Assembly (NCBI GenBank): GCA_035299385.1
Contig: DATGWQ010000130.1
Span: 1,093 to 65,092, forward strand
From: Bacteroidales bacterium
GTDB lineage: Bacteria; Bacteroidota; Bacteroidia; Bacteroidales; VadinHA17
Length of the DNA stretch: 64,000 nt
Direction: 5' to 3'
The notes beneath the pieces were generated by a model. The model worked only from the letters and a program-made list of their open reading frames with translations. It ran no database searches and was not told the origin of the DNA. A program made the translations under genes and the position numbers. The number at the start of each line of letters is the position of its first letter. The first letter of the stretch is position 1. Below, piece after piece: positions 54,103 through 61,494 of this stretch.

Positions 54103-55479
54103 ATGTATATTTACGAAAAAAAGCTGTTCATGGTGGAAGAATCCGCGAAAATGAATTCCTCAGAAAAGATCAGGGAACCTTCCGGCCGTATATTCGAGAG
54201 GGTCGGGAAAAATACCGAAAAACTATCGCTGATAGCCTTGTTTTGCCTTATTGCAGCAGTTCTGCTGTTATCTGTCGGACAGATCCTAATAGCAGGGTGC
54301 ATGGTTGTAGCTGCGGCTGCGGCGGGTATTCTGATCTACAGCAAAACACTCGAGCTGAACAGGAAGTATAATGACACCCTGTCCGAAATGAATTCGATAG
54401 GCGGCAAACAGGATGAAGTTATTTCCAGCTTTTCTCATAAGATCAGGGAGCCCCTGAACAACCTGGTCATCATAACTGACATGCTTTCCGAATCAGGGCT
54501 GACCAAAAAACAGCAGGAGCTTCTCGAAACCTTCATAGCTTCGACCAACAACATGGTGACAACCGTGAACGAGCTCTCCATGCATTCTTCAGGAACAACG
54601 ATACATGAACAAAGAAAATCGATCCGGTTCAACCTTATCTCAACTATCGAGAACACTTTTGATCTTTACAGCCTGAAGGATCAGGCTAATCTCGAGTTCA
54701 TACTGAATAAAAAGGATTTCAGGGATGCCGAATATTATGGTGATCCGATATCGATCAAGCAGATCTTTCTCGACCTGTTCAACACTATCGAGAACCAGGC
54801 TTCAGAAAAGGCTATCACTGTGACGATCAATCTTAAGAAGGTGAAAGAAACCGCCAGTGAAAGTACAATTGCATTCAGGATACAGATTGACAGGAATATC
54901 ATACTGATCGACGAAGCTGAAACGGACAGGAGCCTTGCAGCACGTCTGATTTCAGCAAACAGGGGGAGCTATGACCAGGAGGCAGGTCCAAATCACTCAA
55001 TACTGAATTTTTATCTCACGCTGGGCAATACAACTCCTGAGCCGAGGCATAAGGCTGTCTCTCCCATCATGGAGGAGCTTGCACATAAGGAAAAAGCCCG
55101 CAAGAACCTGAAAGATCTTAAGGTCCTCCTCGTTGAAGACAACCTGATTAACCAGAAAATTACCCTGCTCACACTGAGTCCTTTTGTAGGAGCTATTGAA
55201 ACAGCATCAAACGGCAAGGAAGCGCTCGACAAGTTCGGTACGACAAATTATGATCTTATCCTGATGGATATCCAGATGCCTGTGATGAGCGGCCTCACAG
55301 CAGCCGAAAAAATAAGGGCTCTCGAATCGACGACAAACACACATGTGCCTATCATAGCGATTACAGCGAATGCAATGATTGGTGATAAAGAGAAATGCCT
55401 TGCCGTCGGAATTGACGATTATATAAGCAAACCCTTCCAGCCTGCCTCGCTTATAGAAAAGATTAAGAAGATTATATAG
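54103..55479 (+). CDS. Hybrid sensor kinase-like protein: TM region, HisKA, degenerate ATPase-like region, receiver
   Basis: 458 aa. H-box SFSHKIREPLNN. Receiver VLLVEDNLINQK...DLILMDIQMP...ITANA...SKP. I could not find G1 (DxGxG) or G2 (GxGLG) boxes between them. Confidence 0.8.
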   Translation: MYIYEKKLFMVEESAKMNSSEKIREPSGRIFERVGKNTEKLSLIALFCLIAAVLLLSVGQILIAGCMVVAAAAAGILIYSKTLELNRKYNDTLSEMNSIGGKQDEVISSFSHKIREPLNNLVIITDMLSESGLTKKQQELLETFIASTNNMVTTVNELSMHSSGTTIHEQRKSIRFNLISTIENTFDLYSLKDQANLEFILNKKDFRDAEYYGDPISIKQIFLDLFNTIENQASEKAITVTINLKKVKETASESTIAFRIQIDRNIILIDEAETDRSLAARLISANRGSYDQEAGPNHSILNFYLTLGNTTPEPRHKAVSPIMEELAHKEKARKNLKDLKVLLVEDNLINQKITLLTLSPFVGAIETASNGKEALDKFGTTNYDLILMDIQMPVMSGLTAAEKIRALESTTNTHVPIIAITANAMIGDKEKCLAVGIDDYISKPFQPASLIEKIKKII

Positions 55480-56515
55480 TCCCTGCGCTCAGCGGACGAA
55501 ATCCTATCACCATTATATCGTCCACCTGGACATTCCTGCCCATCCAGTTGCGGATATTGTCTTCAAGAACGACTTTCTGATCACTGAAAGGAAGCTTGTG
55601 TATGTTCAGCAAGAGATAACGGAACCGCCTGTACATGAACTTTTTATTATCCTCTCCCCCGAACTGGTCAACATACCCATCTGAAAAAATGTAAAGGACA
55701 TCATCATCCATAAGATCGTATTCAGTCTCGGTGTACCTGTGGCCTTCAGGGTTCATGCCGATGATCAGCTTATCGCCCCTTATCTCAGTAAGAGTGCTTT
55801 TCCTGATCAGGTAAAGAGGAAAAAATGCCCCGGCATAATGCAGCTTCCTCAGCTTCTTTTCAATTATGCACAAACCCACATCCATACCGTCCCTGATTAT
55901 TGTTCCGATATTTTTTTCCCTGCTGAAAGTCTTTTCCAGCGCCTTGTTGAGGATAGCGAGGATCCTGGCTGGGTCCTGGATATGATCATCGTTGATAGTC
56001 TTTTCAATAATTTCATGGCCGATCATCGACATGAGGGCGCCCGGCACACCATGACCCGTACAGTCTGCGGCAACAACAAATATCTTATCATCGTTTTCAC
56101 CGATCCAGTAAAAATCGCCGCTCACTATATCCTTGGGCATGAAGAGAATGAAAGAATCCTGGAATCTCTGACGGAAGTAGTCCTCTGACGGAAGCAGGGC
56201 TTCCTGAATTCTCTGTGCATATATAAGGCTGTCAATAAGGTTTTTATCCTTGAGCTCAAGCTCTGCTTTCTGCCTGTCGACAGTTTCAAGAGCCTGTTCC
56301 TTCTCTTTAAGCAACCTCCGTGTCTGAATAAGCAGCCTGGTTTGTAATCTTAGAATAAGGTAAACGAGCGCAACCGCGATAATTCCAAAAACAAGAATTC
56401 TGAAGAATGCACCGGATGCCCATGGAAAGGTATCCTGAAGGGAAGTCTGCTCAAGAGCCTTTCCGGCTAAAATGAAATGGTATGTCAGAACATGGTATAA
56501 CATCGAAGAATACAA
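55472..56515 (-). CDS. PP2C-type serine phosphatase (SpoIIE/RsbU family) with N-terminal TM and coiled coil
   Basis: 347 aa. GDFYWI...VAADCTGHGVPGALMS and SDGYVDQFGG motifs. The 3' end overlaps the convergent kinase-like gene by 8 nt. Confidence 0.85.
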   Translation of the reverse strand: MYSSMLYHVLTYHFILAGKALEQTSLQDTFPWASGAFFRILVFGIIAVALVYLILRLQTRLLIQTRRLLKEKEQALETVDRQKAELELKDKNLIDSLIYAQRIQEALLPSEDYFRQRFQDSFILFMPKDIVSGDFYWIGENDDKIFVVAADCTGHGVPGALMSMIGHEIIEKTINDDHIQDPARILAILNKALEKTFSREKNIGTIIRDGMDVGLCIIEKKLRKLHYAGAFFPLYLIRKSTLTEIRGDKLIIGMNPEGHRYTETEYDLMDDDVLYIFSDGYVDQFGGEDNKKFMYRRFRYLLLNIHKLPFSDQKVVLEDNIRNWMGRNVQVDDIMVIGFRPLSAGTI

Positions 56516-56530
56516 AAATATATGGTTTTT

Positions 56531-58432
56531 TCAAACCATTGCTCTGCCTGTTAACAACTCATCATTCCCCGCTTTTTTCAGCTTTCTGTATCTGAGCGAG
56601 GGTGATTCGATAAATTCCCCGATCCCAAGTTCCGGCCATAATGAATCCACGCTGGACATTGTTTTATTGTCAGAACAAACAACATTCGGCCATCTTCTCG
56701 GAAAACCTCCCTTCCTGTAAGCCTTTATCGTGCCATCAACGAAAACCACCTCGCCGTTTATGAAGAAATGATCACGCCCGGGATCGCTGTTTGCAAGGAC
56801 CTGCCATGCAACAGTGAAATAATCCCTGACATCCACAGCATTGTCGACAGCCACAACAAGCTTTACTGCTGTATCACTGAGCCGCCCGGACAGCAATTCC
56901 TTTAACTTGCCTGTCGATTCCGGGTCAGAAACGAGGTCGACAGACAGGATCAGGACAGGAATGCCGTCTTTGATCAGCTCAGAATTGAAATCTTTAATCA
57001 CACTGGATCCGGATATAAAAGAGAAATCCTGCTCCGCCGAATTCAGCTTTGACCGGGTAACTCCTGAAAATTCCTCCGGCATTTTCGATGTAGCATCAAT
57101 CCCGGCTTTTCCTCCGAAAGAGAATGAATCCGAGGCATGATCCAGCACGTCGAGAGGGCCACGGCTGAATAAAATATCTTTCACGGGATCAGTATTAATG
57201 AAGACATGCCTGGCAAGTTCATAGTAATTCCTTATATCGACTCCGCCGTCGACGACAACAATGTATTTTGAAAACATCATCTGCCCTGCCCCGAAAAGTG
57301 AATTGATGACCTTAATGCCCTGGCCTGGATAACTCTTCCTGATACTGACAATAACGAGGTTGTGAGCTGTTCCTGCATCCGGCATATGGAAGTCAAGCAC
57401 CTCGGGCAGCATGGCCATCCTGACAGGGCCGAGAAAGATCCTTTCCGTAGCCTTTGCAAGCCATGCATCTTCCATCGGAGGAATTCCCACGATAGTTGCA
57501 GGATATACAGCTTCTTCCTGATGAGTTATACAGGTGACATGAAAGCGCGGGTAAAGATCAGAAAGGGAATAAAAGCCTGTATGATCGCCGAACGGGCCTT
57601 CCATAAAGAGCTCTTCCGAAGGGTCGACATATCCTTCAATGACAATATCCGCATCTTCCGGAACCATCAGGTCGTTTGTGATGCATCTGACCAGCCTCAC
57701 TCTTTTCTTCCTCAGGAATCCTGCAAGAATATATTCACTGATGTTTTCCGGAAGCGGAGCTGTTGCAGCGTAGGTGTATACGGGGTCTCCGCCCAGGGTT
57801 ACCGATACAGGCATCCTCCTGCCCTTTTTTTCCCATGCCTCAAAATGATTTGCACCTGTTTTGTGCCTTTGCCAGTGCATGCCGGTTGTTCGGCTGTCCA
57901 GAACCTGCATCCTGTACATGCCGACATTGGGGCTGCCGGTTTCTGGATGGATGGTGTGCACCATTGGAAGTGTGATGAAGCGCCCGCCGTCATAAGGCCA
58001 GCATTTCAGAATCGGTAGTATACCAAGATCAGGATCGCGGATTATTACATCCTGGCAGGCGCCCCTTTTATTTGAATGCGAGGGTAACAGGGAGGAGAGC
58101 TCAAACAGCTCAGGCAATGATTTAAGCTTTGAGGTGAAAGAGGGCTTCAATGAAGAAAAGCGGCTGAACAATCCTTCAATTTCCTCACCTGCATCGTAGG
58201 GATTTTCGCGTGAAAGGGCAAGGGCCATCCTTTTGTCGGAGCCGAACATATTGATCAGAACCGGGAACCCTGTACCGTCATTTGTGAAAAGAAGCGCTTT
58301 GCCGTTTGATTTTACAACTCTGTCTGTGATCTCAGTAATTTCAAGTTCCGGGTCAGCGAACCTGTTGATTGTTATGAGTTCGTTCTCCTTATTGAGCCTC
58401 TTTATAAAAGAATTAAGGGAAGTGTATGGCAT
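56531..58432 (-). CDS. UbiD family decarboxylase (menaquinone/ubiquinone-type prenyl-aromatic decarboxylase)
   Basis: 633 aa. GPFGDHTGFYS and HWQRHKTG motifs typical of UbiD. Confidence 0.85.
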   Translation of the reverse strand: MPYTSLNSFIKRLNKENELITINRFADPELEITEITDRVVKSNGKALLFTNDGTGFPVLINMFGSDKRMALALSRENPYDAGEEIEGLFSRFSSLKPSFTSKLKSLPELFELSSLLPSHSNKRGACQDVIIRDPDLGILPILKCWPYDGGRFITLPMVHTIHPETGSPNVGMYRMQVLDSRTTGMHWQRHKTGANHFEAWEKKGRRMPVSVTLGGDPVYTYAATAPLPENISEYILAGFLRKKRVRLVRCITNDLMVPEDADIVIEGYVDPSEELFMEGPFGDHTGFYSLSDLYPRFHVTCITHQEEAVYPATIVGIPPMEDAWLAKATERIFLGPVRMAMLPEVLDFHMPDAGTAHNLVIVSIRKSYPGQGIKVINSLFGAGQMMFSKYIVVVDGGVDIRNYYELARHVFINTDPVKDILFSRGPLDVLDHASDSFSFGGKAGIDATSKMPEEFSGVTRSKLNSAEQDFSFISGSSVIKDFNSELIKDGIPVLILSVDLVSDPESTGKLKELLSGRLSDTAVKLVVAVDNAVDVRDYFTVAWQVLANSDPGRDHFFINGEVVFVDGTIKAYRKGGFPRRWPNVVCSDNKTMSSVDSLWPELGIGEFIESPSLRYRKLKKAGNDELLTGRAMV

Positions 58433-58515
58433 CTGTCTTTGATATCTGCCATAAAGATATTCAATATTGTATTGCAGTTGGCTTGGCCGACTTTAAGAGA
58501 GCAGAATAATCTTTG

Positions 58516-58595
58516 CGGGCTTTAGGACTAAAGTCCTTTCGTGGCCGGCCTTTAGCCCGCTGGCTGAAGCCAGCGGTAATGAAGCCAGCGGTAAT
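58516..58595. repeat. Hairpins plus tandem 15-mer between the ncRNA terminator and the UbiD-family gene promoter
   Basis: aggac-taaa-gtcct (58524-58537). gctggc-tgaa-gccagc (58559-58574). gaagccagcggtaat x2 (58566-58580 and 58581-58595). Confidence 0.8.
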
Positions 58596-58600
58596 TTTAT

Positions 58601-58640
58601 AAAAACAAAAATGGGAATCAATCCTGAAGATTAACTCCCA
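58601..58640 (-). terminator. Intrinsic terminator of the orphan ncRNA unit
   Basis: Minus-strand RNA reads UGGGAGUUAAUC-UUCAG-GAUUGAUUCCCA. This is a 12-bp stem (2 G-U pairs) followed by U-UUUUGUUUUU. Confidence 0.75.
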
Positions 58641-59111
58641 TCCACCGTTTTCAACCGTAATTGAATCCGGCGTCAGGTTACTGTTATTATGACCGGCTGC
58701 TTCTGTGAATAAAAAGACATTTCTGAATTAAAACTCATTCTGCAGCCCCAAACCGTCAGGCATTGCTTTTTACGGCAGCACCATCCGGCTGTCCTTTTCT
58801 CCCGCCGGAGCGGAATTAAGGGACGAAGCGTCATTCAGGCCCCGCGGCACCATCCCGAGGGACAGATGACGGTTTCCAGCTTAATATCCGGACCGAAGTC
58901 CTTCAATTATCTGAAGCCCTGTGACTCAATCATTGAAAGAACGTTTCCGAGCTTCATTGACCTACTGAACATCTTGAGCTTTCGCCCCTGGTCCAGGTCT
59001 TCGGCTCTCCTGATATGCAGTCCCGGAGGTCTGACCGAAACGGATCGTGTTTCATTTAAGTAACCTTCTCCGCTTCCACATCATTCGAGCGGTCTTTTAT
59101 CGCTCACCTGA
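58601..59111 (-). ncRNA. Candidate large structured ncRNA (~510 nt), family not recognised
   Basis: Bounded by a consensus promoter and an intrinsic terminator. No minus-strand ORF >=60 aa. Visibly more G+C-rich than the flanking spacer. Hairpins include GGAC-UUCG-GUCC (58890-58901), GGGC-GAAA-GCUC (58976-58987), CCGC-UCCG-GCGG (58802-58813) and GACG-CUU-CGUC (58822-58832). Confidence 0.55.
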
Positions 59112-59116
59112 TAAAT

Positions 59117-59147
59117 CAAAGATACTACCAATTTTCCCAATAACAAA
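59117..59147 (-). promoter_or_regulatory. Bacteroidota sigma-A consensus promoter driving the ncRNA unit
   Basis: On the minus strand: TTTG (59144-59147), exactly 19 nt, then TATCTTTG (59117-59124), a perfect TAnnTTTG. Predicted TSS about 59109-59112. Confidence 0.65.
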
Positions 59148-59385
59148 CAAAATCACCCGCTTTTTTTCACACCGAATCAACACCATGTTCACATATTTGT
59201 TAATAACGTCTTGAATGCGCATAAAATCATCATTTGCGTATACATAAAAATAATCCTGAATTTATAAAAAAACTGCATTGATCCGGCTATTCTGAACACC
59301 CGTCTAAAATTCGGATACGCTTATCCTTATTTATTGGTTTTTCATCAAATCTTACAACCATTAACCTTAAACAAAAACAAAAGAA

Positions 59386-59511
59386 ACACGGAGACATGAG
59401 AACACGGAGGTACACGGAGGTGCACGGAGAAAATTGTAGGGACATGCCATGGCATGTCCCTACGATAAACCGCGATAAAACACGTAGGGACACGCCGTGG
59501 CGTGCCCCTAC
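59386..59511. repeat. Octamer tandem words plus twin 28-nt palindromic hairpins downstream of eno
   Basis: (a/g)cacggag x4 (59386, 59402, 59412, 59422). Perfect palindrome gtagggacatgccatggcatgtccctac (59436-59463). Related gtagggacacgccgtggcgtgcccctac (59484-59511). cgataaa x2 lies between them. Confidence 0.9.
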
Positions 59512-59533
59512 GAAATTAAATAACGTGAATTCT

Positions 59534-60823
<1,290 letters not shown>

Positions 60824-60957: not shown

Positions 60958-61494
60958 TTACTTTTCTTCAGGAACAGTACCTTCTTCGGGTTTTTCAGCT
61001 TCCGGAGCTTTTTCTGTTTCAGCTTTTGCAGCAGCAGGTTCACCTGCTTTTACATCTGCTGTTTCCTTCTTCTTTGAAGAAGCTCTTCTTCTCCTTGTGG
61101 TCTTTGTCTTTGCTGCTTCTCCTCCGAGCATTGCTTCATTGTAGTCAACGAGTTCGAGAATGCACATTTCGGCATTGTCGCCTATCCGGTTGCCGGTTTT
61201 CAGGATCCTTGTATAACCGCCCGGGCGCTCTGCAATCTTCGGGGAAACCTCCCTGAAAAGCTCGGCAACAGCTTCCTTGTCCTTCAGGTAGCTGAATACA
61301 ATCCTTCTCGAATGCGTTGAATCTTCCTTTGATTTTGTTATTAATGGTTCAACAAACGTGCGAAGGGCTTTTGCCTTTGCAGTTGTTGTTGTTATCCTTT
61401 TATGAAGGATCAGTGATGAAGCCATGTTGGAAAGCATCGATTTCCTGTGTGCACTTGTTCTTCCCAGATGGTTGATAACTCTTGAATGTCGCAT
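60958..61494 (-). CDS. rplQ: 50S ribosomal protein L17 with long K/E/A/P-rich C-terminal extension
   Basis: 178 aa. [22 protein letters not shown]-terminus. The low-complexity tail starts after about residue 120. Confidence 0.95.

Follow-up and report, generated by a model that had tools for sequence, protein, structure and literature searches.

A candidate family of large stand-alone structured RNAs in Bacteroidota, encoded between eno and a UbiD-family gene in a Bacteroidales genome

The DNA analysed here, referred to as the window, is a 64,000-nt (64-kb) stretch of contig DATGWQ010000130.1 from a Bacteroidales bacterium. It carries eno (59534-60811) and a UbiD-family gene (56531-58432), both on the minus strand and separated by 1101 nt, in agreement with the gap of about 1.1 kb given in an earlier note on this DNA. 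The gap contains a predicted RNA gene, which probably represents an uncatalogued family of stand-alone structured non-coding RNAs (ncRNAs) of Bacteroidota acting in trans, an estimate that covers the observed core of the proposal and the trans action jointly. The core, namely gene limits defined by signals, conserved secondary structure, non-coding nature, independence from the flanking genes, wide distribution and absence from Rfam, is directly supported by the comparative sequence data. The gene is delimited by the following features.

58601-59112, minus strand: RNA gene, predicted transcript of about 510 nt; 5' end placed from promoter geometry, 3' end from the terminator U-tract.
59144-59147, minus strand: -33 element TTTG, by direct reading.
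59117-59124, minus strand: -7 element TATCTTTG (consensus TAnnTTTG), by direct reading; spacer to TTTG of 19 nt.

Bacteroidota promoters are of the -33/-7 consensus type, which the promoter of the RNA gene fits. The order of its parts on the minus strand (TTTG at 59147-59144, 19 nt, TATCTTTG at 59124-59117) is the one described in the earlier note, and the intrinsic terminator proposed there is recovered as well, a consensus scan placing it at 58643-58609, followed by the U-tract. Homologous loci were first collected via the UbiD-family protein and then with nhmmer, and the same signals recur in them. The -7 box TAnnTTTG stands at a fixed position, 3-8 nt before a conserved 5' motif, in 123 of 123 distinct homologues, TTG is found 19-21 nt upstream of this box in 136 of 159 homologous promoters, and a conserved hairpin with a U-tract closes all homologues first examined (123 distinct). 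The family profile matches the window at 59113-58602 (nhmmer, E = 2e-124), as one copy only. The RNA body is richer in G+C than the spacer upstream of it (0.55-0.60 vs 0.30-0.33 at 59150-59350), as had been noticed, and the sense strand folds at -181.7 kcal/mol with z = -3.7, a value matched by none of 100 shuffles; the antisense strand has z = -2.0.

Conservation of the secondary structure was assessed on an alignment of 67 sequences with less than 88% pairwise identity. RNAalifold gives 83 consensus pairs for it, 63 of them with compensatory changes. The structure counted on the same alignment has 93 pairs in 20 helices, and its controls were made by sliding the 3' partners by 1-3 columns and by 500 shuffles. 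Standard pairs fill 94.7% of the cells, vs 25-47% in the slid controls; double-sided changes occur in 70 of the 93 pairs, vs 41-48 in the slid controls and a mean of 42.7 in the shuffled ones; and the covariation score is 0.361, vs 0.05-0.12 in the slid controls. The observed covariation values were not attained in any of the 500 shuffles.

Two minus-strand open reading frames (ORFs) lie within the unit, the longest of 53 aa (58673-58834) and another of 33 aa (58954-59055), and their presence is what speaks for a dual-function RNA or a gene for a small protein. Either has a negligible probability. Column entropy is flat over the three codon phases (0.90, 0.89 and 0.92) and period-3 power is below the median; among the 67 homologues no ORF is conserved in position or frame, and eight have no ORF of at least 25 aa. 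The variation is instead compensatory within helices. The unit thus combines compensatory substitutions, supporting 20 helices, with its own promoter and terminator and with neither codon periodicity nor a conserved ORF, which bears out the structured ncRNA gene proposed in the earlier note.

The architecture of the RNA is given below in order from the 5' end. RNA position i lies at window coordinate 59114 - i, and helices are numbered 1 to 20.

59106-59111, minus strand: 5' strand UCAGGU of P1, the closing helix, at the extreme 5' end (helix 1, 99.8% paired).
59095-59105, minus strand: near-invariant internal-loop strand GAGCGAUAAAA, 5' side; invariant alignment columns, served as a search motif.
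59092-59094, minus strand: 5' strand GAC of P2 (helix 2; middle pair AU in 34 and GC in 25 sequences; double changes in 3/3 pairs of the handle set, described below).
59004-59090, minus strand: 5' domain, closed by GCUC/GAGC (RNA positions 24-27 with 107-110), helices 3-8, from a constrained fold.
58823-59003, minus strand: central domain, closed by the long-range helix 59003-58998 / 58828-58823, helices 9-13, with GGAC-UUCG-GUCC at 58890-58901.
58694-58822, minus strand: 3' domain, helices 14-18.
58691-58693, minus strand: 3' strand GUC of P2; covariation in the full and handle alignments.
58679-58690, minus strand: internal-loop strand AUAAUAACAGUA, 3' side; invariant columns AUAAC.GUA, served as a search motif.
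58673-58678, minus strand: 3' strand ACCUGA of P1; covariation in the full and handle alignments.
58643-58672, minus strand: H1, a 3' hairpin between P1 and the terminator, GCCGG...UCAAU-UACG-GUUGA...CGGU (helix 19; double changes in 10/10 pairs of the handle set).
58601-58642, minus strand: H2, the terminator hairpin GAUGGGAGUUAAUC / GAUUGAUUCCCAUU (58642-58610) with the U-tract (helix 20, 99.8% paired).

Inside P1 lies an asymmetric internal loop, GAGCGAUAAAAG / AAUAACNGUA, which is near-invariant throughout the family. The AGUA beside P1, opposite GAG, fits what we take, by eye, to be a G-bulged (sarcin-ricin or loop E-like) module. Pairing of the C in GAGCG with the N in AACNGUA, inside this loop, was tried and rejected, as the pair is standard in only 4% of cells. 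The 5' domain contains a hairpin with a CUUAAnUG loop and the CCUCCGGG hairpin; the 3' domain contains UCC/GGA, CCGC-UCCG-GCGG (58802-58813), the GGUGCUGCC...GCAAUGCC hairpin and GGCUGC/GCAGCC (58747-58742 / 58700-58695). The central domain is the variable region, partly missing in variants of about 400-445 nt and enlarged in those of about 1.1 kb, such as the giant member L206 (L numbers denote homologous loci).

This fold agrees in part with the hairpins proposed from the single sequence. Among these, GGAC-UUCG-GUCC, CCGC-UCCG-GCGG, the GGCUGC/GCAGCC helix (58695-58747) and the terminator are supported by covariation. At 58976-58987, 58939-58955 and 58851-58868 the homologues also have hairpins, which fall outside the 93 tested pairs. 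Two local hairpins give way to other structures. The supposed 5' hairpin GAGCG-N9-CGCUC does not form, GAGCGAUAAAA being the conserved internal-loop strand and its presumed partner GCUC pairing with GAGC at RNA positions 107-110, and GACG-CUU-CGUC is superseded by the long-range helix that closes the central domain. The long-range helix suggested between 59064-59074 and 58809-58821 is absent from the consensus. That first reading did not include the long-range architecture as it is now drawn, the wide spread of the family or the conserved element ahead of the promoter.

Members of the family are built in two layers. Each has a terminal handle, consisting of P1, the near-invariant loop, P2, one 3' hairpin and a terminator conserved in sequence; divergent members share only the promoter, the P1-loop-P2 handle, H1 and H2, and their interiors are unrelated in sequence. 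The handle was therefore evaluated on its own in constructs that joined its 5' and 3' parts from 46 sequences across the Bacteroidales sub-lineages through an artificial GAAA linker, the Cytophagales being kept outside the alignment. In these constructs 89.5% of the cells pair, vs 29-45% in slid controls, and double changes occur in 23 of 32 pairs. P1 changes from CAGGU/ACCUG to CAAGU/GCUUG or CAGAU/AUCUG across clades. Direct reading of the Cytophagales shows the first of these changes, and AUGGG/CCCAU in their terminator has become GCGGG/CCCGC. The sequence AUGGGAA/UUCCCAU of the lower H2 stem is kept family-wide and covaries to GCGGGAA/UUCCCGC in Cyclobacteriaceae.

The second layer is a lineage-specific body of helices capped by GNRA and UUCG loops, which varies in size about four-fold. 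Total length ranges from about 285 to about 1150 nt, with a median of about 490 nt. Minimal forms measure about 285-315 nt (L231, L270, L250, L205) and about 290-300 nt in Cyclobacteriaceae, the short variant of about 400-445 nt has no profile positions 240-322, and the largest members reach about 1150 nt (L206, L213, L251).

From this design the handle may be proposed, tentatively and at somewhat less than even confidence, as the recognition platform for a protein partner, the RNA being a scaffold or a regulator within a ribonucleoprotein (RNP). Its 5' end would be buried in P1, with the probable G-bulged module alongside and two 3' hairpins after it, and the lineage-specific bodies would add clade-specific functions or stability. 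The same gene could also produce a functional RNA without any protein, that is, a self-assembling ornate RNA, a ribozyme or a trans-acting ligand sensor. The many GNRA and UUCG tetraloops on helices of variable length, the highly conserved junction nucleotides and the lack of a conserved partner gene nearby would suit such an RNA, and size and complexity are comparable to those of the ornate RNAs presented in PMC12286853. A crude all-against-all covariation scan for pseudoknots and tertiary contacts gave mainly false positives driven by G-U pairs and no convincing pseudoknot; the handle resembles a recognition module more than a catalytic core; and the minimal members of about 285-315 nt do without most of the body, so any activity would have to sit in the handle. 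A protein-free RNA is accordingly rated as a minor possibility.

Full-length homologues directly upstream of the UbiD-family gene were found in 19 genomes, with E values down to 1e-85 for a single query sequence; profile nhmmer gave E values down to 1e-164. In the same genomes the RNA is more conserved than the neighbouring UbiD-family proteins, which are only about 60% identical. The search was widened by scanning GTDB, at one genome per species, with the 5' motif GGTGAGCGATAAAAGNNNGCT, the 3' motif and a variant 5' motif, each of which gave at least 120 matches. For the 5' motif, 120 of 120 among the matches listed were true homologues, the 3' motif added 66 further confirmed loci, and the variant motif showed that the family reaches beyond Bacteroidales. 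A strict rule, requiring the -7 box, the 5' motif, the 3' motif, complementarity at 5/5 P1 positions and a T-run, is satisfied by at least 187 loci. Judged by these signals, the RNA recurs in well over 150 species of Bacteroidota, across several orders.

The hosts include Bacteroidales (among them Prolixibacteraceae isolates), Cyclobacteriaceae, Saprospiraceae and others. Cultured carriers listed in the scans include Draconibacterium sediminis, D. mangrovi, D. aestuarii, Maribellus maritimus, M. sediminis and Tangfeifania diversioriginum DSM 27063; further cultured carriers are Bacteroidales bacterium 6E, Cecembia lonarensis LW9, Rhodonellum psychrophilum, Mariniradius saccharolyticus AK6, Pleomorphovibrio marinus, Shivajiella indica and Cognataquiflexum aquatile. 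Carrier metagenome-assembled genomes (MAGs) are labelled Saprospiraceae, Flammeovirgaceae, Flavobacteriales and Chlorobiota.

Not all Bacteroidales have the RNA, and two or three copies occur in some genomes. In OW818689.1 (L244 837-3022, minus strand) three tandem paralogues of about 550 nt each, with a mean column identity of 91%, have their own promoter and terminator each and differ from one another by compensatory changes. Two dispersed copies are present in several Prolixibacteraceae genomes (L220/L238, L258/L265, L230/L271). A Mariniphaga MAG (L130 4260-4359) has an extra partial copy that comprises the 3' module only (profile positions 441-539), that is, the P1 3' strand, the hairpin and the terminator; it follows the full RNA gene at a distance of about 1.7 kb, after a 507-aa ORF.

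The order eno, RNA, UbiD-family gene is found in 76 of the 103 loci with enough room, the RNA being co-oriented with the UbiD-family gene and 18-365 nt before it. The latter gene corresponds to TIGR03701 mena_SCO4490, a menaquinone biosynthesis decarboxylase (MqnL-like). Such an arrangement, with an RNA that ends in a terminator as attenuators do, could indicate a cis-acting leader, i.e., a giant riboswitch or attenuator controlling the downstream gene through this terminator. However, in the other 27 loci eno and the UbiD-family gene are both not nearby and the next gene is often convergent. The flanks in these loci include genes for a GH29 fucosidase, ArgRS, citrate synthase, acetyl-CoA hydrolase, KdsA and others, and the flanking genes in Cyclobacteriaceae are likewise variable. 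The UbiD-family gene itself has a separate -7 box, TATCTTTG/A, after the terminator in nearly all loci examined, which in the window is the following element.

58452-58459, minus strand: -7 box TATCTTTA of the UbiD-family gene, about 20 nt before its ATG.

Furthermore, no conserved anti-terminator partner was seen for the AUGGGAAC arm, each tandem copy comes with a separate promoter and terminator, and in a sister clade of Bacteroidales (L019-L034) only 100-230 nt separate eno from the UbiD-family gene, without the RNA in between. A MAG of this clade, MAG244, has a divergent RNA copy elsewhere, beside a different gene (L218). The eno/UbiD adjacency seems older than the presence of the RNA there, because the sister clade has the one without the other. 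The variable neighbours and the separate -7 box of the UbiD-family gene lead us to reject a leader or riboswitch as most improbable. The -7 element that the earlier note had suspected after the terminator is thereby confirmed, and its argument for an independent RNA gene gains from the fixed -7 box in 123 of 123 homologues and from the 27 loci with unrelated neighbours. It is highly likely that such a stand-alone RNA acts in trans.

Gene order is stable within clades, and beyond the clade-specific eno and UbiD-family genes no protein gene recurs in the flanks. In the window, eno is preceded by a gene at 60958-61494 that we take, by eye from its translation, to be rplQ (ribosomal protein L17); because rplQ adjoins eno upstream, the RNA gene lies at the distal end of a ribosomal-protein/rpoA cluster. 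On the other side, the UbiD-family gene is followed by a 347-aa gene (55472-56515) for what, also by eye, is presumably a membrane-anchored phosphatase of the PP2C/SpoIIE-like type.

The spacers around the RNA gene have features of their own. A perfect palindromic hairpin of about 30 nt occurs directly after the eno stop codon in two copies, GTAGGGACATGCCATGGCATGTCCCTAC and one 87% identical to it, at 59436-59465 and 59484-59513. Both score as terminator-like, another species has the same element before its RNA gene (L120 6705-6730), and it may be an element similar to repetitive extragenic palindromes that doubles as the eno terminator. Between these hairpins and the AT-rich spacer, CTCCGTG is repeated four times at a spacing of about 10 nt (ctccgtgcacctccgtgtacctccgtgttctcatgtctccgtg, 59387-59429, minus strand). 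Contrary to the earlier note, by which the gap had no minus-strand ORF of at least 60 aa, one of 68 aa with a GTG start is present at 59287-59493; it lies upstream of the RNA, over the post-eno hairpin and the CTCCGTG repeats, and is probably spurious. Between the RNA terminator and the UbiD-family gene (58525-58594) there are a 15-nt tandem duplication (TGAAGCCAGCGGTAA twice, 58565-58594) and the small palindromes GCTGGCTTCAGCCAGC and GGACTTTAGTCC, and homologous loci have other junk-like GC-rich repeats in this spacer (e.g., L091 and L081). Among loci where tblastn leaves only 18-31 nt between the terminator and the ATG, the ATTG of the post-terminator CCCAUUAUUGUUUU stands about 20 nt before the UbiD -7 box in L160, L163 and L110, and could serve as the -33 element of the UbiD-family gene.

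Upstream of the RNA promoter lies an array of short boxes.

59163-59206, minus strand: four DnaA-box-like 9-mers, TTATTAACA (59206-59198), TGTGAACAT (59193-59185), TGTTGATTC (59182-59174) and TGTGAAAAA (59171-59163).

In the subclade of the window these are split half-sites of a family palindrome, GTTATTAACAATTGTTAATAAC, together with TGTTTATAT boxes. The palindrome is present in 126 of 159 distinct promoters, followed by TGTTTATAT- and GTKTAYAAC-like boxes, and 118 of these 126 have it centred 73-74 nt before the -7 box. In 103 loci it occurs in exact form, one copy each, and all upstream regions inspected have it immediately ahead of the RNA gene; it was not found in the rest of the 64-kb window. 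Among the three tandem copies of OW818689.1, only the first has the exact palindrome. At the corresponding position, perfect TGTGGATAA boxes occur in Cyclobacteriaceae. The DnaA box consensus is TTATCCACA, of which TGTGGATAA is the reverse complement. With up to one mismatch, 115 DnaA-box matches fall at -130 to -30, vs 6 in the control interval at -400 to -300 (209 distinct regions). The array is likely to be a binding array for a transcription factor that regulates the RNA gene. Linkage of the boxes to a replication origin was considered and rejected: in the window, GC skew shows no switch at this locus, the genes are co-oriented across it, and dnaA was not found in the window or in any of 385 loci.

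These boxes, together with the closing helix that joins both ends, the varying genomic position between lineages and the tandem or multiple copies in some genomes, might also point to an RNA of a mobile or defence element (retron msr/msd, IscB/TnpB omega-RNA or a group II intron remnant) or to an origin-associated transcript. This explanation has a very low probability. No gene for a reverse transcriptase, IscB, TnpB or a transposase recurs alongside, the RNA was not found in IMG/VR viral contigs, phage genomes or plasmid collections, and the stable gene order within clades and the results on GC skew, gene orientation and dnaA given above argue against it as well.

Comparison with Rfam 15 (4227 covariance models) gave no match at the gathering threshold in the 64-kb window, and only tRNAs, elsewhere in the loci, for 36 homologous loci from every clade. 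Permissive scans (E up to 10), run on the window copy and on one minimal member, returned microRNA and small nucleolar RNA noise on the flanks, or nothing, so that the statement of the earlier note that no known family could be matched holds at both levels. The Bacteroidetes motifs of Weinberg (2010) with Rfam accessions (RF01685, RF01692-RF01694, RF01705) gave no match either. A diverged member of a known family (RNase P, 6S, tmRNA, signal recognition particle RNA, OLE, ROOL, GOLLD, raiA or Bacteroidales-1) might nevertheless be suspected from the strong consensus promoter, the closing helix of the 5' and 3' ends, a large conserved loop reminiscent of the 6S central bubble and short by-eye resemblances to RNase P (UGAAUGAC, GUAA-type loops). 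The scans make this very unlikely, and inspection family by family points the same way. For RNase P there is no RF00010 or RF00011 match at E up to 10, and the P4 core GGAAAGUCC...ACAGAA..GGCUUA is absent from the alignments on inspection; a tRNA-like domain and a tag ORF are absent too. For 6S and 6S-Flavo there is no RF00013 or RF01685 match, and the RNA has a multi-domain fold with a P1 of 6 bp. For OLE, ROOL, GOLLD, raiA and HEARO there is no covariance-model match, no recurring partner gene such as oapA (OLE) or IscB (HEARO), and no occurrence in viral collections.

The preferred interpretation is thus that of an uncatalogued, stand-alone and probably trans-acting structured RNA, carried by what would be a portable cassette: the box array at a fixed distance, a housekeeping-type promoter (-33 TTG, -7 TAnnTTTG), the RNA and an intrinsic terminator. 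Transcription would be gated by a factor on the upstream boxes. This factor might be DnaA, which would tie the level of the RNA to replication or growth status, a suggestion made with considerable doubt. A still more speculative and rather improbable extension is a phylum-wide large RNA controlled via the box array by DnaA or a dedicated factor, whose handle recruits a conserved cellular machine and so couples replication or growth to another core process, or feeds back on initiation.

Several points weigh against one part or another of this interpretation. Perfect DnaA boxes are few (12, in 9 of the 209 promoter regions, vs 0 in the control), those read directly being from Cyclobacteriaceae. 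The Bacteroidales boxes TTATTAACA / TGTTAATAA have two mismatches to the canonical DnaA box, because of which a factor other than DnaA is at least as likely in Bacteroidales. The body is strongly conserved in sequence in the main clade, which is unexplained if the handle alone matters; given this high conservation, the body is not mere filler in that clade. The RNP proposal draws on architecture only, because no neighbouring protein gene is conserved, and transcript ends, abundance and trans action are deduced from sequence signals. Finally, the literature search, which found no description of the family by topic, taxon or motif string, covered open-access full text only.

To our knowledge, large and intricately folded bacterial RNAs are rare. 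Those that are known (rRNAs, RNase P, tmRNA, group I and II introns, OLE, ROOL, GOLLD and raiA) have each revealed new biochemistry or RNA architecture. The present family is distinguished by a mix of features, being widespread, with cultured carriers, a structure backed by covariation, an invariant handle with a variable body and its own upstream array, and this mix makes it readily testable. It would fill a gap in the Rfam-based annotation of an ecologically important phylum. If a box-controlled, machine-recruiting RNA proved true, it would be a major class of bacterial RNA on a par with 6S, OLE or raiA.

The closest analogues of the family, OLE, 6S, the rsm/csr RNAs and ROOL/GOLLD, resemble it functionally or architecturally only. 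RNase P RNA and tmRNA share with it a chromosomal location, a strong promoter, a terminal helix formed by both ends and a tolerance for clade-specific insertions, but the present RNA has no P4 core, tRNA-like domain or tag ORF, is not universal and occurs in 2-3 copies in some genomes. ROOL and GOLLD are similarly ornate, with 500-800 nt, many tetraloop-capped helices and variable peripheral domains; they are typically encoded by phages or prophages beside tRNA genes, whereas the family described here is not in the viral, phage or plasmid collections, is not linked to tRNA genes and gives no match to their covariance models.

The rsmX/Y/Z and CsrB RNAs of Gac/Rsm systems are comparable in regulatory architecture only, having a conserved upstream activating palindrome at a fixed position of about -75 to -85, a strong terminator, tandem paralogues and a variable number of hairpins. 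The present RNA is without repeated GGA-type loop motifs, and its helices, some of them long-range, covary as parts of one defined fold, so that it differs from a chain of independent sponge hairpins. 6S RNA (ssrS, 6S-Flavo) is likewise stand-alone, with a closing helix of both ends beside a large conserved internal loop, and the linkage of ssrS to ygfA is a parallel to the clade-wide linkage with a downstream protein gene. 6S is, however, a rod of about 185 nt, in contrast to the 6-bp P1, multi-domain body and two extra 3' hairpins found here.

OLE of Bacillota is alike in being chromosomal, of about 500-600 nt, conserved in both sequence and structure, with many conserved junction nucleotides and a biochemical function yet to be established. 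It works as an RNP, and its gene sits among genes of the isoprenoid pathway; the main-clade copy of the present RNA adjoins a gene for the biosynthesis of menaquinone, an isoprenoid quinone. The two differ in phylum, the OLE covariance model gives no match, and OLE is linked to its partner gene oapA, whereas the RNA described here has its own promoter and terminator, variable neighbours with no conserved partner gene among them and, at about 285-1150 nt in total, a far more size-variable interior.

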